A stretch of 64,000 nt of DNA. Origin: Candidatus Daviesbacteria bacterium (GTDB taxonomy: Bacteria; Patescibacteriota; Microgenomatia; Daviesbacterales; UBA10151). The notes beneath the pieces were generated by a model. It made no database searches, was not told the DNA's origin, and saw only the letters and a list, made by a program, of their open reading frames with translations. Position numbers and translations under genes: made by a program. Positions within the stretch are counted from its first letter, which is position 1. Each line of letters starts with the position of its first letter. Positions 8,736 through 56,825 of this stretch are shown here, in pieces. The DNA is taken from the NCBI GenBank assembly GCA_030648645.1, contig JAUSHL010000018.1:2225-66224 (forward strand), given 5' to 3'.

Positions 8736-8987
8736 TTATTTTTTTATTTTAATGCTGTGGGCAAAAGAAACCGGTTGTGTTTTAGTTTTAAATCCTAATT
8801 TTGGCCCCAGAATTTTAGTGGCATCAAGAATTTCAATTCCTAAAAGTTCTCCATTTTTCCCTAATTCCACACTAACTCCGGGAGATAGTTCTTTATGAGT
8901 TTCCTCTGGTCCACTTTTGATGAGGAACCACAAAACATCAGTTTTTTTATCATAGTAGATTTTTTGATCAGTTTTTTTCATATGCAA
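8736..8987 (-). CDS. DUF2283-like small protein (putative antitoxin partner)
   Basis: YYDKKTDVLWF...GELLGIEILDA pattern typical of DUF2283. Confidence 0.5.
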   Translation of the reverse strand: MHMKKTDQKIYYDKKTDVLWFLIKSGPEETHKELSPGVSVELGKNGELLGIEILDATKILGPKLGFKTKTQPVSFAHSIKIKK

Positions 8988-9258
8988 GCCACCTTCTACT
9001 TAAAACTCTATTTCTAATTTCATGTTCATCGGTTGGATAAACAGTGATAATCTGGATTTCATCATCCATTATATCATAGGCTACCACCATTGGCTTGTAT
9101 TTTTTTTCATATATTAAGACCTTAATGGCAATTTGGTGTTTTGTTAAAGGATCAAAAAAACGAAATTCTGCTTCCGTCACTATTTTCTTGGGATAAGACT
9201 GAGGAATAAGTCTTTGTTTGAGTCTAATTTTAAGATGTGGTTGCAATATAATCTTCAT
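8968..9258 (-). CDS. DUF4258-like protein (putative toxin partner)
   Basis: Overlaps the downstream DUF2283 gene; DUF4258/DUF2283 pairs are a recurrent putative TA arrangement. Confidence 0.45.
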   Translation of the reverse strand: MKIILQPHLKIRLKQRLIPQSYPKKIVTEAEFRFFDPLTKHQIAIKVLIYEKKYKPMVVAYDIMDDEIQIITVYPTDEHEIRNRVLSRRWLAYEKN

Positions 9259-9719: not shown

Positions 9720-12700
9720 TTGCTCATGGAGAAAATAGTTTTAGTTGATGGGAATGCTCTGCTTCATCGGGCCTATCATGCCACACCTCCACTTTCTACC
9801 TCCAAGGGTGAGCTAATCAATGCAGTTTTTGGTTTTACTTCCATGTTACTTAAAGCCTTAGATGAGTTAAAACCGGAATATATTGCGGTAACTTGGGATT
9901 TAAAGGCTAAAACTTTTCGGCATGAGGTCTTTGAGCAATATAAAGCCAAAAGAAAACCAATGGATGAGGGATTGGCTTCTCAATTTGACCGGGCTCATCA
10001 AATTATTGAAGCTTTTAATATTCCTCAGTTTAGTCTGATAGGATATGAGGCAGATGATCTAATAGGCACGCTTGCAACGCAAGCAGTGAAACTCGAAACT
10101 CGAAACTCGAAACTCGAAACGATCATTGTAACAGGGGATAGGGATTTAATGCAGTTAATAAGTGAGAGGGTAAAAATTTTCATGCCTAAAAAAACTTTAG
10201 CTGATGTTGGATTATATGGAGAAGAAGAATTTGCCTTAAAATATGGCTTTGCCCCCAAAAATTTAGTGGATTTTAAAGCCTTGGCAGGGGATCAGTCAGA
10301 TGGCATTCCGGGTGTGCCTAAAATTGGCGAAGTTTCTGCTACAAAATTAATTCAGGAATATCAAACTATTGAAAATATTTATAAAAATTTGGACAAAGTA
10401 CCCGAGAGAACCAGAAAATTATTGGAAGAAGGCAGAGAATCTGCATTTTTAAGTCATAAATTAGCCACTATTAATACAAATACACCTATTAAATTAGATT
10501 TACCAGCCTGCAAGGTGCATGATTTTGAGAGAGAAAAAGTGGTGGAATTATTTAATGAACTACAATTTAAGAGTTTAATTTCCAGAATTCCTAATATTCC
10601 CTCTGTCATTCCTGCCCGCTTCGCCATAGCTTCAGCGAGGCGAGCGAAAGCAGGAATCCAGAAAGCCTGGATCCCGGATCCCTTCGGCCTCGCTCAGGGC
10701 GGGCAAGTCCGGGATGACAATAGTGAGATTGCTTCTCCGGCTTTGTCGGATCGCAATGACAATAATATGACTGATAGTGATAAAAATCAAAACCAGGCTA
10801 CAACAGATTTAGACAAAGAAGTTGTACCAATTTTAGAAGAAATGTCTAAGATCGGAGTATTGGTAGATCTGGTGTTTTTGAGTAGGCTTAGTGAGGATCT
10901 GCATAGTAGATTAGATAAGATTGAACAGGAAATTTACTCAATTATAGGGCATCAGTGTAATCTTAACAGCCCAAAACAGTTACAAATTGTTCTTTTTGAT
11001 GAACTAAACTTACCGGTTGTAAAAAAGACTAAAACCGGACGGTCAACTGATGAAGAAACCCTGCTGGAGTTAAAAACAGCTCATCCTGTAGTTTCTTTAC
11101 TTTTACAATATAGAACTCTTTATAAATTAGTTTCTACTTATGTTGATGCTTTACCAAAAAGTGTGGGGGATGATGGCCGTGTCCATTCCACTTTTAATGT
11201 GGAAGGTGCTTCAACCGGTAGGATTACTTCCAATCAACCAAATTTACAAAATATTCCGGTTAAAGGGGAGATGGGTTCGGAAATCAGAAAAGCCTTCATT
11301 GCTCCCAAAGGGTCGACCAAAGGTCGATCGCCCTCTGGGCGAAAAGTTTTGTTGGGGGCCGATTACTCACAAATTGAATTGCGGATCCTTGCTGATCTGT
11401 CTCAGGATGAAAATCTGATCAAGGCATTTAAAGAGAATCAGGATATTCATACGCTTACTGCCGCCAAAATTTTTGAAGTTCCGCTGGATAAAGTAACAAA
11501 AGAGCAAAGAAATGTGGGAAAAACTATGAATTTTGCCACTTTGTATGGACAAGGACCTCATGCTCTGTCGCGTCAACTGGGAGTGGAATATAATACTGCA
11601 AAGCAATACATAGATGAGTATTTTGAGCAATTTCCTAAAATTAAAATTTGGAAGGAAAAAGTTTTAAAAGGAGCTTATGAGACAGGATATGCAGAAACTC
11701 TATGGGGGAGAAAAAGATATATTCCGGAGCTTAAAGCCGGCAATAAAATGATGCAGTCTTTTGGGGAAAGAGCAGCTATAAATCATCCGGTTCAGGGTTG
11801 TCTTCCCTGGGAAACAAAAATTCTGACTTCAAGCGGTTATATTCCTATAGGAGAGCTATATAGTGCAAAAGATAAGCCTTCTCTGGTTTGGGATGGGAGT
11901 GATTGGTGGTTTTATGAAGTGTTAGATAGAGGTGAAGCACAATTAGCGCAGATTAAATTTTCTAATGGACAGGTATTTAAATGTGATATAAGACACAAAG
12001 TTTTAACTGTTGATGAGAATGGCTATGAATGGAAAGAATTTTCGCAACTTAGGTCTGGGATGAAAGTATGTTTTAGTATGCCAACAGTTCACGAGTTCTC
12101 TTCTACACAGTTTCGCTTTAAACATACGTCGAACGCTCACAATGGGATTTCTTTAAATATTATTGCAGATAAGGAGTTATGGTACTGGTTAGGATATTAT
12201 ATTGGAGATGGATATCTACATAAACGTTGGAATAGAGCTTGGGCTTTTTCATTAACCTACTTTTTTGGAGAACACGAGAGCGAAAAACGGGATAATTGTA
12301 TAAAATTTTTTACTTCACTAGGTTTGCATCCTACGCAGAGAAAGACTACACATCGCCCTAAAGTTAAATTATCCACACGTTATTTGGTTACAGTGTACTC
12401 TCAGGGTTTTGGAAGGTTGTTTGAGGAGATAGGATTATTAGGTGGAAAAAACGCTCATACTAAACGTTTGCCTTCGCGTATCTTCAAAGAATCTTTAGAG
12501 AATCGTTGTGTTTTTATTAAGGGAATTATGGATTCTGATGGGTATGATGGAATAAAGGAAAACAATAATCCAAGTATTCATATTTGCCAAAGAGGATTGT
12601 TGCAAGAGATACAACTTTTATTAAAAACCGTAGGGACAGAAAGTCAGATTAGGGGACCTTATCTCTATAACGAAAAAATTTCATATCGTCTAGATATTCA

Positions 12701-13409
12701 CAGAAATGCTCTGGCACGGGCTTTACGTCAGGGTGAAATGTCGCGGTTTGACCGTTATTTAAATCGACTAACACCTCAATTTCTAGTACAGGAAGCTGTT
12801 TCTTTAGGTGGTCATTTACAAAAAACTCAATTTGCTACAGCTTCAGATTATGTGTTATATAGCCGATGGAAAAATGGAGGCTCCTCTTCTCTCTATTATT
12901 TTCAAACTTGGCTAAAACGTAATAACGTCATATTACAATCACCTGTTTATCATTTTAATGAAATTACGGAAATAGATATACTTGATCAGTTTGAAACAAC
13001 TTACACTTTAAGTGTTCCTGGGAGTCATAGATTTGATAGCGAAGGTGTTATTTCCAAAAATACAGCAGCTGATATGATAAAAAAAGCTATGGTGGAAATA
13101 AATAATCAGTTATCAGTTCTCAGTGGTCAGTCGTCAGTTTTTGGTCAATCAGTTGTCGGTTTGTCTGTAACTGGTAAACGGAAAACTGGAAAACTAAATT
13201 CCGAAAACCGAAAACAGAAAACTGATAACTGTAAATTAATCCTCCAGGTCCATGATGAATTATTGTTCGAGTGCAACGAGAACTCTGCAGAAGAACTGGG
13301 GAAAATGGTCAAAGAAAAAATGGAAAATGCCCTAAAATTATCTGTTCCTGTGATAGTAGATTTAAAAACAGGTCCAAATTGGGGAGAAATGAAGTCCTTG
13401 AAAATTTAG
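9720..13409 (+). CDS. polA: DNA polymerase I with an intein and several in-frame repeat insertions
   Basis: 5'-3' exonuclease N-terminus, polymerase motifs DYSQIELR, KTMNFATLYG, QVHDELLFE; extein junction INHPVQG|...|TAADMIKKAMV. Confidence 0.9.
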   Translation: MLMEKIVLVDGNALLHRAYHATPPLSTSKGELINAVFGFTSMLLKALDELKPEYIAVTWDLKAKTFRHEVFEQYKAKRKPMDEGLASQFDRAHQIIEAFNIPQFSLIGYEADDLIGTLATQAVKLETRNSKLETIIVTGDRDLMQLISERVKIFMPKKTLADVGLYGEEEFALKYGFAPKNLVDFKALAGDQSDGIPGVPKIGEVSATKLIQEYQTIENIYKNLDKVPERTRKLLEEGRESAFLSHKLATINTNTPIKLDLPACKVHDFEREKVVELFNELQFKSLISRIPNIPSVIPARFAIASARRAKAGIQKAWIPDPFGLAQGGQVRDDNSEIASPALSDRNDNNMTDSDKNQNQATTDLDKEVVPILEEMSKIGVLVDLVFLSRLSEDLHSRLDKIEQEIYSIIGHQCNLNSPKQLQIVLFDELNLPVVKKTKTGRSTDEETLLELKTAHPVVSLLLQYRTLYKLVSTYVDALPKSVGDDGRVHSTFNVEGASTGRITSNQPNLQNIPVKGEMGSEIRKAFIAPKGSTKGRSPSGRKVLLGADYSQIELRILADLSQDENLIKAFKENQDIHTLTAAKIFEVPLDKVTKEQRNVGKTMNFATLYGQGPHALSRQLGVEYNTAKQYIDEYFEQFPKIKIWKEKVLKGAYETGYAETLWGRKRYIPELKAGNKMMQSFGERAAINHPVQGCLPWETKILTSSGYIPIGELYSAKDKPSLVWDGSDWWFYEVLDRGEAQLAQIKFSNGQVFKCDIRHKVLTVDENGYEWKEFSQLRSGMKVCFSMPTVHEFSSTQFRFKHTSNAHNGISLNIIADKELWYWLGYYIGDGYLHKRWNRAWAFSLTYFFGEHESEKRDNCIKFFTSLGLHPTQRKTTHRPKVKLSTRYLVTVYSQGFGRLFEEIGLLGGKNAHTKRLPSRIFKESLENRCVFIKGIMDSDGYDGIKENNNPSIHICQRGLLQEIQLLLKTVGTESQIRGPYLYNEKISYRLDIHRNALARALRQGEMSRFDRYLNRLTPQFLVQEAVSLGGHLQKTQFATASDYVLYSRWKNGGSSSLYYFQTWLKRNNVILQSPVYHFNEITEIDILDQFETTYTLSVPGSHRFDSEGVISKNTAADMIKKAMVEINNQLSVLSGQSSVFGQSVVGLSVTGKRKTGKLNSENRKQKTDNCKLILQVHDELLFECNENSAEELGKMVKEKMENALKLSVPVIVDLKTGPNWGEMKSLKI
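10088..10120. repeat. (CTCGAAA)n heptanucleotide tandem repeat inside polA
   Basis: gaaactcgaaactcgaaactcgaaactcgaaac; encodes KLETRNSKLET; same heptamer at 50149-50172. Confidence 0.8.
10605..10718. repeat. GTCAT...GATGAC hairpin mini-repeat inserted in frame in polA
   Basis: gtcattcctgc...cccttcggcctcgctcagggcgggcaagtccgggatgac; near-identical copies at 16059-16108 and 29388-29477. Confidence 0.8.
11799..13061 (+). other. intein (421 aa) with LAGLIDADG homing endonuclease domain inside polA
   Basis: Starts with Cys after NHPVQG; block B-like DIRHKVLT; two LAGLIDADG-type motifs (LGYYIGDGY, IKGIMDSDGYDG); ends ...GVISKN followed by Thr, with extein resuming TAADMIKKAMV. Confidence 0.75.
13117..13232. 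repeat. low-complexity repeat insertion in polA (CAGTCGTCAG and GAAAAC motifs)
   Basis: Adds ~35 aa between the KKAMV helix and motif C; a related CAGTCGTCAG repeat occurs in recF at ~21995-22040. Confidence 0.45.
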
Positions 13410-13506: not shown

Positions 13507-13540
13507 CCCATAAAGTGGACGATCGGGCAAAGTATGGAAT
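13507..13540. repeat. hairpin element (GTGGACGATCGGGCAAAGTATGGAAT)
   Basis: Related copy at 14738-14772 and related to type C elements at 33093 and 33650 (shared ACGATCGG and AAGTATGG). Confidence 0.55.
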
Positions 13541-13599
13541 TAGATATTTTGCGATTTTCCTGCTTGACTTATATATATCAAAAGTATAAAATGATATAT

Positions 13600-13860
13600 A
13601 TGATGGAAACTGTTCAAGCATTTCAATTAGGTTCTTCTACAGTAATTACTTTGCCCAAAACGCTGGGTATTCATCCTGGACAAAAATTTAGTCTTAAAAA
13701 AACCAATAAAAAAATAGTTTTAAAAGAAGAGAAACTTACTGAAATTGAAGTAGAAAAATTAGTTAAGCGTCTTTCTGGAGGATTAAATTTTAAATATCAT
13801 CCTAATCCTGAGGAGCTCAATAAAATTTTTGATGAAGAATATGAAGATTTGTTATCTTGA
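13600..13860 (+). CDS. AbrB/MazE-type antitoxin (VapB-like)
   Basis: SpoVT/AbrB swapped-hairpin N-terminus (VQAFQLGSSTVITLPK); ATG at 13600 is in frame within ORF 13534-13860. Confidence 0.5.
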   Translation: MMETVQAFQLGSSTVITLPKTLGIHPGQKFSLKKTNKKIVLKEEKLTEIEVEKLVKRLSGGLNFKYHPNPEELNKIFDEEYEDLLS

Positions 13861-14296
13861 TGCTAACTTGCTGGTCTACTATGGGAATAGAAATTCGCCT
13901 TTTCATTTTAGGTCTCGAAGCATCATTAAAAAACTTATTTTAGAAAATTGGCAACTACGTATTAGTTCATTAATCTTAGATGAATATGAGCATGCCATAA
14001 TTCGTTTGTCAGGAAGTATAAAGGCAGAAGTCATTAAAGATTTAAGAGGTGGGTTAAAAAAAATTTCTAAAATCCCCATGCTAGAGTTAGTTAATCCTCC
14101 ATTACGGATAAAAGAACATTTCAAAATATTAAAATTTATTGAAAAGTTTGGACTAAAACCTCGAGATGCTTATCATTTGTTTATCATGAAAGAGAATAAG
14201 ATTCAATTTATGGCTACTTTTGATAATGATTTTGAAAAAGTTTTTAACAAAAGTGTGATAAAAAAATTTGAATTAGCCCTAATTGGGGAGAAATGA
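13829..14296 (+). CDS. PIN-domain toxin (VapC-like)
   Basis: ICYLDANLLVYY and TFDNDFE acidic motifs; overlaps the antitoxin gene. Confidence 0.6.
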   Translation: MMKNMKICYLDANLLVYYGNRNSPFHFRSRSIIKKLILENWQLRISSLILDEYEHAIIRLSGSIKAEVIKDLRGGLKKISKIPMLELVNPPLRIKEHFKILKFIEKFGLKPRDAYHLFIMKENKIQFMATFDNDFEKVFNKSVIKKFELALIGEK

Positions 14297-16058: not shown

Positions 16059-16108
16059 AGATTCCGTGTCCCTTCGGCCTCGCTCAGGGCGGGCAAGCAC
16101 GGAATGAC
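16059..16108. repeat. GATTCCGTGTCCCTTCGGCCTCGCTCAGGGCGGGCAAGCACGGAATGAC mini-repeat
   Basis: Shares the CCCTTCGGCCTCGCTCAGGGCGGGCAAG core with 10605-10718 and 29388-29477. Confidence 0.8.
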
Positions 16109-17534: not shown

Positions 17535-18704
17535 ATGAAAGTAGCCTTAGCACACGATTATCTCCGTGAGTACGGTGGTGCGGAACGTGTTCTTGAAACA
17601 ATTCATGAGATGTTTCCTGATGCTCCGGTTTATACTGCCTATTATAACCCTGAAAGCTTAGGGGTAAATGCTAAAAGGTTTGCCAGTTGGAATATCAAAA
17701 CCTCTTGGATGCAAAAAGTTCCTTTTGCCAATAAATTAATTTCCCCCTTTAGAATTTTTGCTCCTTTTATGTTTGAAACATTTGATTTTTCTGAATATGA
17801 TTTAGTCATTTCTTCCTCCTCGGCTGTTTATTTTGCCAAAGCAGTCTTAACAAAACCACATACTTTGCATCTAAGCTATATTCACACTCCTCCCAGATTT
17901 TTATATGGATATACAACTTCCTTTAATTACAAAAAAAATCCAATTACTCATATTTTAGGAGAAATAGTAAATCATATCTTACGAATTTATGATTTTAATG
18001 TTTCCCAAAGGCCGGATATTTTAATGGCCAATTCCAAAAATGTGCAGGCAAGAATCAAAAAATTTTATCGAAGAGATTCAGTAATTATTTATCCACCTGT
18101 CAATCTAAAAGAGTTTGTCATTCCTGCGAAAGCAGGAATCTATGGATCCCTGGTCAAGCCAGGGATGACAAATTCCAGGATGACAGATAAAGAGTATTTT
18201 CTTTCCTTAAATAGATTAGTGAGGGGGAAGGGGACAGAGATTGCTGTGGAAGCCTGTACAAAATTAAATTTGCCATTAAAAGTAGTAGGAATGGGTCCGG
18301 AACTTGTCCCACTTCGTTCTGTTGCACAGAACTACGTGGGATGTAAAAACATAGAATTTTTAGGCAATGTTTCTGATGAGGAAAGGGTAAAGTTATATGC
18401 TGGGGCCAAAGCCTTGATTGTAGCCTCAGAAGATGAGGATTTTGGAATTACTCCGGTGGAGGCACAAGCTGCCGGAACACCAGTAATAGCTTTAAAAGCC
18501 GGTGGATTTTTGGAAACCGTGGTGGCTGGAAAAACTGGAGAATTTTTTTCTGAACCAAATGCAGAGAATTTGATGGAAGTATTAAAAGATTTTGACCCTC
18601 AAAAATATAATCCTGAAGATTGTAGAAAACAGGCAGAAAAATTCTCGGAGGAGAGATTTAAAAAAGAATTGTTAGACTTGATTGAGAAAAATATAAAAAA
18701 ATAG
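17535..18704 (+). CDS. glycosyltransferase family 4 (GT1/GT4 fold)
   Basis: C-terminal EDFGITPVEAQAAGTPVIA motif; contains an in-frame mini-repeat at 18117-18186. Confidence 0.8.
   Translation: MKVALAHDYLREYGGAERVLETIHEMFPDAPVYTAYYNPESLGVNAKRFASWNIKTSWMQKVPFANKLISPFRIFAPFMFETFDFSEYDLVISSSSAVYFAKAVLTKPHTLHLSYIHTPPRFLYGYTTSFNYKKNPITHILGEIVNHILRIYDFNVSQRPDILMANSKNVQARIKKFYRRDSVIIYPPVNLKEFVIPAKAGIYGSLVKPGMTNSRMTDKEYFLSLNRLVRGKGTEIAVEACTKLNLPLKVVGMGPELVPLRSVAQNYVGCKNIEFLGNVSDEERVKLYAGAKALIVASEDEDFGITPVEAQAAGTPVIALKAGGFLETVVAGKTGEFFSEPNAENLMEVLKDFDPQKYNPEDCRKQAEKFSEERFKKELLDLIEKNIKK
18117..18186. repeat. GTCATTCCTGCGAAAGCAGGAATC...GGATGAC mini-repeat inside the GT4 gene
   Basis: Encodes VIPAKAGIYGSLVKPGMTNSRMTD; related copies at 29388 and 55755. 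Confidence 0.75.
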
Positions 18705-29082: not shown

Positions 29083-30903
29083 ATGATATTTGGTAAATTT
29101 GCGGAGTATTTGGAAAAATTAGAAACAACTTCTTCCAGATTATCTTTGATTGATATTTTAGCTGATCTTTTTTCTGAAGTTAAAGCAGATGAAATTGCTG
29201 AAGTGGTATATCTAATTCAGGGCAGAGTAGCTCCATTTTATGAACCAATTGAGATTGGGATGAGTGAAAAGTTAGTAGCAAGTGCAATTGCTCAAGCTTA
29301 TGGAGTTTCTAAAGAAGAAGTGTTGCAAGAATATAGCAAAGTGGGGGATTTGGGGAAGGTGACAGAGAAACTGGCGGGGCCTGCTATGTCATCCCTGCGA
29401 AAGCAGGGATCCATAAAGAATCCGGATGGATCCCGGATCCCTTCGGCCTCGCTCAGGGCGGGCAAGTCCGGGATGACAGTGGGAACGGTTTCTGAAACCT
29501 TATTGGAAATTGCCAAGATTTCTGGAAATGGGACTGTGGAAAAAAGAGTTAATCTTTTGTCTGATTTGTTAAAACAACTTGATCCAGTATCTGCCAAACA
29601 TTTAGTCAGAATTCCGATGGGAGCCTCCCGTCTTGGAGTTGGAGATCCCACAATCCTCGAAGCTTTTGCCCTCGCTAAATTGGGAGATAGAAAACATAGA
29701 AAAGTGTTGGAGGATGCTTACAATAAAACTTCTGATTTAGGAATTATTGGGCAGACTTTATGGAAAAGTGGAATAAAGGGGATTGAAAAATTGGATGTGG
29801 AGGTGGGAAGACCTTTAAGATCAGAGCTGACAGAAAGATTACCGGATGCAAAAACAATTTTGGAAAAAATGGGAGGCAGAGCTCATTGCCAACGGAAATT
29901 TGATGGATTTCGTGTACAAATCCATAAAAATGGGAATAATGTCAGATTATTTTCCAGAAATTTAGAAGAAACTACCCCAATGATGCCAGAGATTGTGGCA
30001 GGAGTATTAAGTCAGGTCAAAGCCAAAACTGCTATTTTGGACTCAGAAGCTCTGGCTTACAATCCTGATTCAGAGGAATTTTTACCTTTTCAGGAAACCA
30101 CTAAAAGGAGAAGAAAATATGATATTGAAGAAATGAGCAAAAAATTACCCCTGAAAGCTTTTGTTTTTGACATTATGTATCTTGATGGAAGATCGTTGGT
30201 CGGAGAATCGTTAGTCGAAAGAATGAAAAAATTAAAACAAGCAGTTTCAGGAGATGAAACCCTTATCCCTGAACCTGGGGTTTTTACAGATTCTGCAGAA
30301 AAAATCCAGGAACTTTTTGATGATGCTATTACCAAAGGGCTGGAAGGATTAATTGTTAAAAAACCTGATTCTAAATATGAAGCAGGAGCAAGGAATTTTA
30401 ATTGGGTAAAGCTAAAACGGCATAGTGCCGGGGAATTACACGACACCATTGATTGTGTAATTTTAGGATATATTTTTGGTAAAGGGAAAAGGTCTTCTTT
30501 TGGGGCAGGGTCACTCTTGGTTGGTGTTTATGATGAGAAAAAGGATATGTTTGTCACAGTTTCCAAAATTGGGACAGGACTTACAGATATAGAATGGAAA
30601 GAGGTACATAGGAGAGCTGATAAAATTTCTGTTGATAAAAAACCTGCCAGAGTTGATTCTGTGATAGTCCCTACAGTTTGGATTAAACCAGAGATTGTGA
30701 TAGAAGTTTTGGCAGATGAGATCACTAAATCTCCTACTCATACAGCAGGGAAGGTAGGAGATGAGCCTGGATTTGCCCTCAGATTTCCCAGATTGGTGAG
30801 GTTTAGAGCAGCTGACAAAAGACCTGAGGATGCCACAACTGTTCAGGAACTTTTAGAGATGTATAATATGCAATATGAGCATAAAAAAGAACAAAATAAG
30901 TAA
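29083..30903 (+). CDS. lig: ATP-dependent DNA ligase
   Basis: KxDG adenylation motif (QRKFDGFRVQIH), DNA-binding, adenylation and OB domains. The ORF opens at 28969 but that stretch overlaps the GGDEF gene, so the in-frame ATG at 29083 (MIFGKFAEYLEKLETTSSR) is preferred. Carries a mini-repeat insert at 29388-29477. Confidence 0.8.
   Translation: MIFGKFAEYLEKLETTSSRLSLIDILADLFSEVKADEIAEVVYLIQGRVAPFYEPIEIGMSEKLVASAIAQAYGVSKEEVLQEYSKVGDLGKVTEKLAGPAMSSLRKQGSIKNPDGSRIPSASLRAGKSGMTVGTVSETLLEIAKISGNGTVEKRVNLLSDLLKQLDPVSAKHLVRIPMGASRLGVGDPTILEAFALAKLGDRKHRKVLEDAYNKTSDLGIIGQTLWKSGIKGIEKLDVEVGRPLRSELTERLPDAKTILEKMGGRAHCQRKFDGFRVQIHKNGNNVRLFSRNLEETTPMMPEIVAGVLSQVKAKTAILDSEALAYNPDSEEFLPFQETTKRRRKYDIEEMSKKLPLKAFVFDIMYLDGRSLVGESLVERMKKLKQAVSGDETLIPEPGVFTDSAEKIQELFDDAITKGLEGLIVKKPDSKYEAGARNFNWVKLKRHSAGELHDTIDCVILGYIFGKGKRSSFGAGSLLVGVYDEKKDMFVTVSKIGTGLTDIEWKEVHRRADKISVDKKPARVDSVIVPTVWIKPEIVIEVLADEITKSPTHTAGKVGDEPGFALRFPRLVRFRAADKRPEDATTVQELLEMYNMQYEHKKEQNK
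29388..29477. repeat. GTCATCCCTGCGAAAGCAGGGATCC...GGGATGAC mini-repeat inserted in frame in the ligase
   Basis: Shares a 45-nt core with 10660-10718. Confidence 0.8.
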
Positions 30904-55093: not shown

Positions 55094-56825
55094 CTTCGTC
55101 GGGAAAATCTATCTTCCATCCTAACAGATTAAGTTGAGGATAGGAATTAATTTCTTTAATTTCCGTAAATTCTAAAAGATCTGCAAATAATTGATTATAA
55201 AAATTGGCAGTTACAGGAAAATCTTCGGCCAATCTTTGATGATTTGCAAATATTCTTCTGCTTTGAATTATAAAATAATCTGATTTTTCTAAATCTTCTT
55301 TTAATTTTTGTTGACTCAAAATATTTTCATCCAAATCATAAAAATTTAAAGATAGTCTTTTAAAATTTTCCGGAAGTGGAATATCAACCATGTTACCTTC
55401 TTCCAGAAAAACAGTTCCCGGAGTTAGATTTTGGGCAATCCAATTTGAAGCCTGAAGACGGACATCATTTTTTAAATAGATTGAGAAATAAGATAAGGTC
55501 CAAAGGATAGTAAGAATTAAGAATGAAGAATAAGCAAAGCTTGCGATCCGATGATCTTTAAGAATTAAGGAAAAATATTTATTAATTTTAAATTGAGAGA
55601 TTTTAAATAAAAGAAAGGCAGAAAAAATGGCAAAGAAAGGAAAAGTGGGGGAAATGAATCTGGTCCATTTGGCAAATAAAAAAGCATTGGATAAAAACAG
55701 AATTAAGAATGTAGAATTAAGAATTATGAATAAAAAGACAAGCGTCGTATTTTTGTCATTCCTGCGAAAGTCCTTCGATCCCGAGGGCCTCAGGACCGAG
55801 GGGCAGGAATCCAGATTATTGTATTCTGGATCCCGGGTTAAGCCCGGGATGACAGATAAAGGTGCGGGATGACAGTGACATTGACGAAAAATAGATAAGC
55901 ACATTGCTAGAAAACCTGCTATGCCAAAAACTAACAGAGCAGGGCCTAAAGCATATGGATAAATTTTTTCAAACTGAAATAAAACCGGAACAGTATTGAT
56001 AAATTGTCTGGTATAAAAAACCGGAATAGTGCCTATTGCCAGCGCGCTTTCATATTTAAAACTGGATAAAAAGCTGGAAAAATCTAAAAATAAATAGGGA
56101 TCAATTATAAATAAAGTAACTAAAATAATAAATAAACTTAGAATTATTCGGGAGATTATTTTTGGTATGGTCCGCCAGCTGGCGGATGGGGATGCAAGAA
56201 AAATTCCCAAAAGTATCGGCAGAAATAAAACAGCAGAGCTGATTTTAACTCCCAGTGCAAGTCCCAGAGAGGCAGAAGAAAGAATGAGGAATAAAGATTT
56301 TTTTTGTTTTACAAAATATAACAAAAAAGTTAAAGACAAAAAGATAAAAAATATTAAATTAGATTCCGGAGTTAAAAAATGAGCTTGTTGAATAAGCCCC
56401 GGAGTAAGGGCTACTAAAGCTGCTGCTAAAAGAGAGTATTTTTTATTAAAGAAAGTAAGGGAGATAAGGTAGATAAGGGGAATAGTGAGAGTGGAGAATA
56501 AAGCAGAATAAAATCTTCCAATTAAGAAAGGGGACAGGTTATAAGCAGAGCTTGCGATCTGTTGATCTAAGGTTACAAGTTGTAGTAATTGCTGAGTGAA
56601 GTAATTAAGATAGATAGAAAAAGTACCATAATTAAAAAAATGAGGGTTCATTTGATTGGGGAAACTTAATTGATTGGCAGAAATCACAATATAGTATTCA
56701 TCAGGGTGAGTAAATAGTCCCTGTCCCCAGTCTAATTTATAGAATCTCAGCACAGCACCGACAATCATGATTAAGGTTAAAGAAATAATTACCTTTTTGT
56801 TTTTCATAAAGTCTTTGATTATCAC
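55026..56825 (-). CDS. GT-C glycosyltransferase (family 39/83-like), second paralog, with an in-frame mini-repeat
   Basis: THPDEYYIV loop motif; repeat 55755-55873 encodes HCHPAPLSVIPGLTRDPEYNNLDSCPSVLRPSGSKDFRRNDKN. Confidence 0.6.
   Translation of the reverse strand: MIIKDFMKNKKVIISLTLIMIVGAVLRFYKLDWGQGLFTHPDEYYIVISANQLSFPNQMNPHFFNYGTFSIYLNYFTQQLLQLVTLDQQIASSAYNLSPFLIGRFYSALFSTLTIPLIYLISLTFFNKKYSLLAAALVALTPGLIQQAHFLTPESNLIFFIFLSLTFLLYFVKQKKSLFLILSSASLGLALGVKISSAVLFLPILLGIFLASPSASWRTIPKIISRIILSLFIILVTLFIIDPYLFLDFSSFLSSFKYESALAIGTIPVFYTRQFINTVPVLFQFEKIYPYALGPALLVFGIAGFLAMCLSIFRQCHCHPAPLSVIPGLTRDPEYNNLDSCPSVLRPSGSKDFRRNDKNTTLVFLFIILNSTFLILFLSNAFLFAKWTRFISPTFPFFAIFSAFLLFKISQFKINKYFSLILKDHRIASFAYSSFLILTILWTLSYFSIYLKNDVRLQASNWIAQNLTPGTVFLEEGNMVDIPLPENFKRLSLNFYDLDENILSQQKLKEDLEKSDYFIIQSRRIFANHQRLAEDFPVTANFYNQLFADLLEFTEIKEINSYPQLNLLGWKIDFPDEVAEETWSVFDHPVIRIFQKNVK
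55755..55873. repeat. GTCATTCCTGCGAAAG...GGGATGACAG...GGGATGACAG mini-repeat cluster inside the GT39 gene
   Basis: Family shared with 18117-18186 and 3088-3203. Confidence 0.8.

Follow-up and report, generated by a model that had tools for sequence, protein, structure and literature searches.

A probable class 1 intein with an embedded LAGLIDADG homing endonuclease in the DNA polymerase I gene of a Candidatus Daviesbacteria bacterium

The polA gene of this Candidatus Daviesbacteria bacterium carries an in-frame insert of 421 codons, which is very probably a class 1 intein that houses a two-motif LAGLIDADG homing endonuclease. The gene occupies positions 9720..13409 (+) of the window, by which we mean the whole 64,000-nucleotide stretch of DNA that was analysed, and encodes a PolA of 1229 amino acids including the insert. 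The intein lies at 11799..13061 (+), equivalent to amino acids 694-1114 of the precursor, and runs from Cys1 (TGT, 11799-11801) to Asn421 (AAT); these limits are indicated by profiles, by the predicted fold and by homologues with the same boundaries. Sequence anatomy, the fold match, extein continuity, purifying selection, a patchy distribution and family-wide conservation were established directly, and from these we infer splicing, DNA cleavage and homing. The insert adds a clear-cut case to a known kind of mobile element rather than a new kind, and leaves the current understanding of inteins unchanged.

The host protein matches the Pfam families 5_3_exonuc_N, 5_3_exonuc and DNA_pol_A, and scores 824 bits against the NCBIfam DNA polymerase I equivalog. 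Its N-extein (9720..11798, +) comprises the 5′-3′ exonuclease domains, a linker in the place usually taken by the 3′-5′ exonuclease domain, and the polymerase domain as far as ...ERAAINHPVQG, with Gly693 as the -1 residue. The C-extein (13062..13409, +) starts with Thr+1 (ACA) of TAADMIKK and includes motif C (QVHDE) and the stop codon. The insert itself, which begins CLPWETK and ends HRFDSEGVISKN, is flanked by NHPVQG and TAADMIKKAMV; the initial annotation had described a 421-residue insert at 11799-13061 splitting the PVQGTAAD segment of polA, and every sequence detail that it gave proved correct. The insertion point corresponds to Gly850/Thr851 of E. coli Pol I and Gly755/Thr756 of Taq. 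Since the conserved Gln of the PxQG motif, in the catalytic cleft, sits one residue before it, PolA activity should depend wholly on splicing. At the GC content of the window (33.6%) a random codon would be a stop about 7.4% of the time; by our own arithmetic the probability of 421 stop-free in-frame codons is near 1e-14, and the open frame of the insert is therefore not due to chance.

Comparison with intein-free PolA, proposed with the initial annotation, reveals exact continuity of the exteins. Fused without the insert, they align gaplessly over the junction with the Taq and Klenow Pol I sequences, and 20 intein-free Daviesbacteria polA genes have NHP[VI]QG[TS][AS]ADMIK unbroken. Removal of the insert, which in the window polA would join AATCATCCGGTTCAGGGT directly to ACAGCAGCTGATATGATAAAA at the DNA level and gives the predicted spliced-junction peptide AAINHPVQGTAADMIK, restores a continuous conserved host protein, as is characteristic of class 1 inteins. 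The same continuity could in principle arise by removal at the RNA level, if the insert were a group I or group II intron with an in-frame LAGLIDADG ORF. Introns also encode LAGLIDADG endonucleases, and the rRNA genes of candidate phyla radiation bacteria are known for insertions that encode homing endonucleases (PMC11270868). We nevertheless consider an intron extremely improbable, given that Hint lobes flank the endonuclease and that the ends of the insert fall exactly at the extein junction, with Cys1, Asn421 and Thr+1. A search against intron RNA families produced no match at the gathering threshold, and none at an E-value of up to 1 in nucleotides 11500-13400.

Profile searches, also proposed with the initial annotation, bear out both parts of the intein. 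PF14528 (LAGLIDADG_3) matches the insert with 40.8 bits (cut-off 22.5) and TIGR01445, which describes the intein N-terminal region, with 25.8 bits (cut-off 24.5), while PF14890 (Intein_splicing) reaches 26.3 bits, under its cut-off of 35.8. The AlphaFold2 model of the intein has a pLDDT of 87.4 and a pTM of 0.89. The top PDB matches to this model by Foldseek are full-length endonuclease inteins, namely TliVMA (7qss; E 2.9e-18, TM 0.66), PI-PkoII, PI-PfuI and PI-SceI; the endonuclease part on its own matches I-DmoI (TM-score on target ~0.7), I-SceI and the PI-SceI endonuclease, and the Hint part matches the RecA and DnaB mini-inteins. A Hint fold made of N- and C-terminal segments is accordingly seen in the model, in the Foldseek matches and with TIGR01445. 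A profile of the family matches PI-SceI (amino acids 98-308), TliVMA and PI-PfuI. No match to the intein was found in PHROGs.

The N-terminal lobe of the Hint domain (11799..12128, +; amino acids 1-110) is rich in beta-strands, with pLDDT above 90 in the AlphaFold2 model; TIGR01445 aligns with amino acids 1-70 and DnaE inteins align with 1-74 by phmmer. Block A (11799-11837, +) reads CLPWETKILTSSG. Block B (11967..12008, +; amino acids 57-70) reads GQVFKCDIRHKVLT, its register being set by alignment to the DnaE intein sequence ...ATKDHKF.... It contains the CDIRHKVLT (amino acids 62-70) that had been noted, without its Cys, as block-B-like in an insert starting with Cys. His66 is B:10, and three residues before it, at B:7, Asp63 takes the place of the usual Thr; Asp is found there throughout the family, which conserves the motif CDxRH, with Cys62 and His66 invariant. 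The B:7 residue assists splicing and has no nucleophile role (PMC4031507).

The C-terminal lobe (12939..13061, +; amino acids 381-421) is defined by invariant columns and by a PF14890 alignment that reaches residue 421. Blocks F and G (12996-13061, +) read TTYTLSVPGSHRFDSEGVISKN and contain Thr403 at F:4 (usually Asp), His410 at F:13, Lys420 at G:6 (usually His) and Asn421 at G:7, so that of these assisting residues only His410 is canonical. The register of the two blocks was set from their distance to the C-terminus, from conservation within the family and from canonical block F and G sequences (Ssp DnaB, Mtu RecA); a phmmer search with the last 41 residues, which take in blocks F and G and extein, gave no match among PDB sequences.

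Among 150 aligned relatives the terminal Asn is present in all, Lys is penultimate in 134 and Thr is at F:4 in 142, and the +1 residue is Thr (74), Ser (59) or Cys (17). Position 1 is Cys in 20/20 tabulated relatives, and CDxRH occurs in every one of the 95 N-junctions that could be matched by pattern search. Cys1, the block B His, the terminal Asn and a Ser, Thr or Cys at +1 are conserved throughout the family. The initial annotation was right that Lys replaces the usual penultimate His, and this is no oddity of one copy; because most relatives share both this Lys and the Thr at F:4, the alignment indicates that the penultimate Lys is a trait of the family rather than a sign of decay. This bears directly on whether the intein may have lost splicing through Asp63, Thr403 and Lys420, leaving polA inactive or the insert a permanent polymerase domain. 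All three assisting positions depart from the consensus of PMC4031507, and PF14890 stays under its cut-off. Family-wide conservation of these same residues speaks for selection and not decay, however. The nucleophiles do not vary, an intact frame has been kept in an AT-rich genome, and the intein is under strong purifying selection. Inteins without a penultimate His are known to splice, with Lys reported at that position (PMC5050341), and a permanent 421-residue domain in the active-site cleft is hard to square with a well-conserved polymerase domain. Loss of splicing is thus very improbable. The Pab Lon intein, too, is said to splice with a penultimate Lys.

Within the established classes, the insert has the Cys1, Asn421 and Thr+1 of class 1, gives a mixed picture at block B (His66 at B:10, but Asp63 at B:7), and departs from class 1 at two assisting positions of high though not universal conservation, where Lys420 and Thr403 replace the His of G:6 and the Asp of F:4. 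These replacements are compatible with membership, since inteins without a penultimate His splice (PMC5050341 and references therein). A class 2 (KlbA-type) intein, with Ala at position 1 and attack by Cys+1, is ruled out by the Cys at position 1 and the Thr at +1. A class 3 (Trp-Cys-Thr) intein, with Cys at F:4, Trp at B:12, Thr at G:5 and no N-terminal nucleophile, disagrees with Cys1, Thr403 and the Ser419 found at G:5.

As a class 1 intein, the element would act as follows. Translation would yield the 1229-residue precursor with its polymerase cleft interrupted, and the Hint domain would assemble from amino acids 1-110 and 381-421. An N-to-S acyl shift at Cys1, helped by His66, would form a thioester, which Thr+1 would attack to give a branched ester intermediate. 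Cyclisation of Asn421 would then free the intein, the block F His410 and/or Lys420 taking the role of the penultimate His, and an O-to-N shift would leave ...NHPVQG-TAADMIKK... in an active PolA of 808 residues. The released 421-residue protein would be a site-specific endonuclease able to cut intein-free polA across the empty site, and recombinational repair off the intein-bearing copy would copy the intein in.

The putative endonuclease core (12129..12701, +; amino acids 111-301) is supported by PF14528, whose 40.8 bits come from two stretches, by PF05204, and by the matches to I-DmoI and PI-SceI. The two dodecapeptide motifs of the initial annotation are both there: LWYWLGYYIGDGY (12177..12215, +; amino acids 127-139), ending ...YIGD137G, and VFIKGIMDSDGY (12510..12545, +; amino acids 238-249), ending ...MDSD247G. 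Two motifs with acidic ends, the profile match and the fold match together place the protein with the monomeric two-motif LAGLIDADG homing endonucleases, and the acidic residues of both motifs, the catalytic Asp137 and Asp247, are intact. The core is followed by a helical extension (12702..12938, +; amino acids 302-380) of four helices in the AlphaFold2 model, which is probably DNA-binding. It is kept in the family and missing from one shortened relative, P0014; a Pfam search with amino acids 302-380 gave no match.

Comparison of the window intein with that of a second Daviesbacteria polA, L020, which has the same intein of 421 residues at the same PolA site (78% identical, no indels), gives a dN/dS of 0.074 overall, 0.048 for the endonuclease and 0.056 for the helical extension, values that are rough because synonymous sites between the two are near saturation (pS 0.69). 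Over the last 150 ungapped residues compared between the exteins, synonymous sites are saturated. The intein is under strong purifying selection. An alternative is that splicing is intact and the endonuclease no longer cleaves, the element being fixed and decaying, or kept for folding or for control of PolA maturation, with its patchiness recording past mobility only. In some relatives the acidic residues of the LAGLIDADG motifs are replaced (Asn/Asp and Arg/Val pairs), and these losses in several copies indicate that endonuclease decay does occur in this intein family. Such losses, with Asn, Arg or Val at the acidic positions, are common in it, and the shortened copy P0014 falls in with them. 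The GC content of the intein matches that of its host, so the element has not come recently from a donor of differing base composition. For the copy in the window we still think a dead endonuclease unlikely: both catalytic Asp residues are kept, no part of the intein has a lower dN/dS than the endonuclease and its helical extension (0.05-0.06), there are zero indels over 421 residues relative to L020, and the identity of these two inteins (78%) exceeds that of their exteins (71-72%).

The distribution of the intein also bears on its mobility. Three of 23 Daviesbacteria-type PolA genes contain it, and the inteins of these carriers are 70-78% identical pairwise. The carriers are scattered on the extein tree, a neighbour-joining tree of ~270 residues without support values, and in its extein L020 shares 83% identity with the intein-free L032 but only 71-72% with the window. 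The low number of carriers and their failure to cluster point to a mobile intein and, together with the purifying selection, lend indirect support to site-specific cleavage of intein-free alleles. The same intein is found at the same PolA site in L050 and in 14 viral contigs, the longest of them 512 kb, and the relatives that were looked at in detail are all inserted at one PolA site. The impression that the family is very rare, gained from 16 matches in a k-mer-limited search, was overturned by an exhaustive homologue search, which returned 81 representatives at E <= 1e-30 and 245 at E <= 1e-10; some 150 cluster representatives carry a related intein at the same PolA site, and members of the family are just 25-40% identical to one another. 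The earlier statement that Pol I inteins are uncommon consequently holds for published surveys and for Daviesbacteria (3/23), but not for sequence space overall, since this particular intein family is fairly common in metagenomes, viral contigs included. Two apparent variants were dismissed on inspection. P0002, whose gene is interrupted within the endonuclease, resembled an intein that is split in nature, but the interruption consists of 10 consecutive N in a scaffold; in L007, where a long tblastn span suggested a second insertion, polA is an ordinary intein-free gene of 786 amino acids.

The element is a well-supported case of a bacterial family A polymerase with an intein, a host that the intein surveys consulted mention only briefly, and it extends the known carriers to candidate phyla radiation bacteria. 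Both Novikova et al. 2016 (PMC4760082) and a table in PMC5874633 list bacterial DNA polymerase I with the replication and repair proteins that contain inteins, as a minor host outside the top 15; the main texts of both give no Pol I insertion site and no candidate phyla radiation example. The polA intein fits the general tendency of inteins to gather in the catalytic motifs of proteins of the replisome. A gene caller or homology pipeline will read this PolA as 1229 residues, whereas recognition of the intein gives the true enzyme of 808. The endonuclease is a candidate for a new rare-cutting specificity, and the natural, conserved set of Thr (F:4) and Lys (G:6), with Cys1 and a mostly Thr or Ser +1 residue, offers material for comparison with canonical inteins and for protein engineering. 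A bolder suggestion is that Asp (B:7), Thr (F:4) and Lys (G:6), together with the invariant Cys before B:7, mark out a sub-type of class 1 splicing with a catalysis of its own. In it, Lys in place of His would promote the cyclisation of Asn or resolve the branch, splicing of the polymerase might respond to conditions such as pH or, through Cys1 and Cys62, redox state, and the family would pass to and fro between large phages and bacteria of the candidate phyla radiation, always at one PolA site; to this we would give only a slim chance.

Among inteins of known structure, TliVMA and PhoVMA (7qss, 7qst), PI-PkoII (2cw7), PI-PfuI (1dq3) and PI-SceI (1vde) are built like the polA intein, with a two-motif LAGLIDADG endonuclease dividing the Hint domain, and likewise begin with Cys1 and end in Asn. 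The polA intein is only 12-17% identical to them and differs in its host protein and site (a bacterial or phage family A polymerase), in Thr at F:4 and the penultimate Lys, and in the four-helix extension after the endonuclease core. Class 1 inteins of mycobacteriophages have Gly, Lys or Ser in place of the penultimate His, and the upstream block F His can substitute for it (Kelley et al. 2016, PMC5050341). The likeness to the polA intein, which retains the block F His410 and has copies on viral contigs, lies in the non-His penultimate residue; the phage inteins, compared here by description, sit in terminase, recombination directionality factor and other proteins, not in PolA. The PolA intein itself is in none of the records of the GenBank phage collection. 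The best matches there are phage ribonucleotide reductase inteins (for instance nrdA of Vibrio phage ICP1), with 21-27% identity over the Hint N-lobe and endonuclease; their host protein differs and their sequences are distant, and some of the matching ribonucleotide reductase records are annotated as intein-containing.

The polA gene of the window is a single ORF of 1229 codons (9720-13409, forward strand), whose product contains 5′-3′ exonuclease domains and a family A polymerase domain that is broken into two parts after residue 693 (Pfam DNA_pol_A, 450 bits), and scores 824 bits with the NCBIfam DNA polymerase I equivalog. The insert comprises 421 residues (aa 694-1114; nt 11799-13061) and reads, with slashes at the junctions, ...ERAAINHPVQG/CLPWETKILT ... 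HRFDSEGVISKN/TAADMIKKAMV. In insert numbering, it carries CDIRHKVLT (62-70), LWYWLGYYIGDGY (127-139) and VFIKGIMDSDGY (238-249). The initial annotation had proposed a LAGLIDADG intein here, and translation of the frame reproduced its position, length, flanks and quoted motifs. At the window GC content of 33.6%, the chance of a 421-codon in-frame insert remaining open is arithmetically estimated at ~1e-14. As listed, the ORF begins at TTG, but translation more likely starts two codons further on, at the ATG at 9726 (MEKIVLVDG...), in line with MKRLVLVDG in the relatives. No recognizable 3′-5′ exonuclease domain was found in Daviesbacteria PolA (window 9720-11798; relatives L001-L032), where a short, variable, low-complexity linker joins the 5′-3′ exonuclease to the polymerase domain. 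Intein-free Daviesbacteria PolA proteins are ~725-790 aa long. Compared with the intein-bearing relative L020, the window protein has 11 extra residues (STKGRSPSGRK) directly before motif A.

Profile searches, which the initial annotation had suggested, identify the insert as an intein with a homing endonuclease: LAGLIDADG_3 (PF14528) reaches 40.8 bits (cut-off 22.5), and the intein N-terminal splicing region (TIGR01445) 25.8 (cut-off 24.5) over residues 1-70. The PF14890 (Intein_splicing) alignment reaches residue 421, yet its score of 26.3 is below the cut-off of 35.8. Using phmmer against PDB sequences, residues 1-74 resemble DnaE inteins and residues 121-283 resemble PI-PkoII; a profile of the intein family matches PI-SceI, TliVMA and PI-PfuI. 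An AlphaFold2 model of the insert, with a homologue alignment as input, is confident (pLDDT 87.4, pTM 0.89), and its top Foldseek matches in the PDB are full-length endonuclease-bearing inteins, TliVMA first (7qss; E 2.9e-18, TM 0.66), followed by PI-PkoII, PhoVMA, PI-PfuI and PI-SceI. Lower-ranked matches cover the parts separately: I-DmoI and I-SceI align with the endonuclease, and the mini-inteins of RecA and DnaB with the Hint portion. An intron was also considered; Rfam intron models gave no match at the gathering threshold in the whole window, nor at an E-value ≤1 in nt 11500-13400. The window holds no second copy of the intein.

With the insert removed, PolA aligns gaplessly across the junction with Taq polymerase and the Klenow fragment (AINHPVQGTAADMIKKAMV against AFNMPVQGTAADLMKLAMV). 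By alignment offsets, the intein separates the equivalents of Gly755 and Thr756 in Taq, one residue past the conserved Gln (Q754 in Taq, Q849 in E. coli) and ahead of the Asp of motif C; this point corresponds to Gly850/Thr851 of E. coli Pol I if, as we assume, the Klenow fragment starts at residue 324. The same segment, NHP[VI]QG[TS][AS]ADMIK, is uninterrupted at protein and DNA level in 20 polA genes from Daviesbacteria, the candidate phyla radiation lineage to which a scan of one genome per species assigned the organism (relatives 56-70% identical). The comparison with intein-free polA that had been called for thus shows a continuous junction in Taq, Klenow and all 20 relatives.

The model and the conserved blocks divide the intein into a Hint N-lobe with blocks A and B (residues 1-110; nt 11799-12128), a LAGLIDADG core with catalytic Asp137 and Asp247 (111-301; nt 12129-12701), a four-helix extension without Pfam match (302-380; nt 12702-12938) and a Hint C-lobe with blocks F and G (381-421; nt 12939-13061). 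Cys1 occupies the first nucleophile position. In block B, Asp63 takes the place of the usual Thr at B:7, and His66 is at B:10; block F has Thr403 at F:4 and His410 at F:13; and block G has Lys420 at G:6, usually His, and ends with Asn421 (G:7) before Thr+1. [quoted passage not shown] Cys1 and the missing Trp-Cys-Thr triplet rule out splicing by the class 2 or class 3 route. Most probably the intein splices by the canonical class 1 route, which would restore an 808-aa PolA, and the LAGLIDADG endonuclease thus released would drive homing. Anatomy, fold, precise junctions, conservation and selection are established by the analysis, and splicing and cleavage are inferred. Cys62 (11982-11984), directly ahead of B:7, is invariant, C-D-x-R-H being present in every pattern-matched family member (alignments A1 and A2); it may pair with Cys1, and such pairing could allow redox control of splicing.

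A k-mer-limited search returned 16 relatives of the intein, every one inserted in a family A polymerase at this position. In IMG/VR, 14 viral contigs of up to 512 kb carry a 25-40% identical intein at ...QG/C...[ST][KQ]N/[ST], and exhaustive phmmer searching of 1.84 billion cluster representatives gave 81 matches at E ≤1e-30 and 245 at ≤1e-10. Among the best 159 proteins, 150 could be aligned over the final 40 intein residues. All 150 have Asn at G:7; G:6 is Lys in 134 (His 8, Arg 5, Gln 2, Gly 1), F:4 is Thr in 142 (Cys 4, Ser 3, Asp 1), F:13 is His in 145 (other residues in 5), and +1 is Thr in 74, Ser in 59 and Cys in 17. A pattern search of the N-terminal junction matched 95 proteins, nearly all with [PA][IV]QG before Cys and every one with CDxRH as block B. 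The penultimate Lys noticed in the initial annotation is thus a conserved trait of a large family tied to the PolA site and does not signal decay. Kelley et al. (PMC5050341) found Gly, Lys and Ser at this position in class 1 inteins of phages and point out that a His in block F can stand in for the penultimate one; the window intein keeps that block F His. The assisting residues, mildly unusual but family-wide, are the sole feature of some mechanistic interest.

The family seems to span different stages of endonuclease decay. Asn, Arg or Val replaces one or both LAGLIDADG acidic residues in several copies, and most of the endonuclease module is missing from P0014 (relatives concerned: contigs L039, L040, L042, L043, L045 and L046; proteins P0006, P0007, P0009 and P0014). 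The window copy keeps both acidic residues. In two cellular intein-bearing contigs, L048 (P0001) and L049 (P0003), polA is broken up into two or three successive gene calls.

The intein of L020 (Daviesbacteria RIFCSPHIGHO2_01_FULL_40_11) is also 421 aa long and aligns without indels to the window copy (77.9% protein and 75.7% DNA identity). Nei-Gojobori dN/dS between the two is 0.074 overall (Hint N-lobe 0.129, endonuclease 0.048, helical extension 0.056, Hint C-lobe 0.077), values that are approximate, since synonymous changes approach saturation (pS 0.69); even so, every part is clearly under strong purifying selection. The intein also occupies this site in a third carrier, L050 (source of P0002), whose polA gene only looks split because of a 10-N scaffold gap. 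These three are the only carriers among 23 Daviesbacteria-type polA genes, and they are scattered on a neighbor-joining extein tree (short, without support values). L020 shares 83.4% extein identity with intein-free L032 but 70.8% with the window, whereas the inteins of the carriers are 70-78% identical. This patchiness and these identities fit either horizontal spread through homing or two-way gene conversion. At 35.7% GC, the intein is like its exteins (36-39%), and so bears no compositional mark of recent import.

The type of intein is already known, and the present one is a further member. Novikova et al. (PMC4760082) name Pol I as an intein host outside the top 15, and Pol I also appears in a review table (PMC5874633). 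In the searchable literature, neither this insertion site nor an example from the candidate phyla radiation was found described. None of the GenBank phage records in the collection searched has this intein; the nearest there are ribonucleotide reductase inteins, with 21-27% identity.

Toxin-antitoxin-like small genes lie on both sides of polA: a DUF2283 gene with an overlapping 96-aa ORF upstream (8736-9258, reverse strand) and a weak MazE-like match adjoining a PIN-domain gene downstream (13534-14296, forward strand). In L050, a MazE/PIN pair (1816-2500) is directly upstream of the intein-bearing polA.

Besides the intein, the window polA contains two more in-frame insertions, both hairpin-forming, one of them from a repeat family dispersed in the window. 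The latter is a GC-rich palindromic element of ~115 nt (10604-10720) in the PolA linker (aa ~296-334), translated as VIPARFAIASARRAKAGIQKAWIPDPFGLAQGGQVRDD. Its DNA fold is a branched hairpin with a minimum free energy of -30.7 kcal/mol (z-score -4.1). The element recurs as exact 52-nt and 29-nt pieces plus shorter ones (29427-29478, 16069-16097, 18116-18171 and 55754-55874). It looks like a REP- or MITE-like dispersed repeat family whose insertion into genes is tolerated; Rickettsia palindromic elements likewise insert into coding sequence. Similar in-frame patches occur in the intein-free relative L007. The second insertion (13105-13231), in the C-extein 44 nt past the intein, contains a 37-nt imperfect inverted repeat (z-score -3.7) and has no other copies in the window; Rfam miRNA matches to this hairpin are at chance level. 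It makes the stretch from the post-TAAD helix to motif C (QVHDE) ~35 residues longer than in Taq (LSVLSGQSSVFGQSVVGLSVTGKRKTGKLNSENRKQKTDN), and the length of this loop varies among Daviesbacteria with or without the intein.
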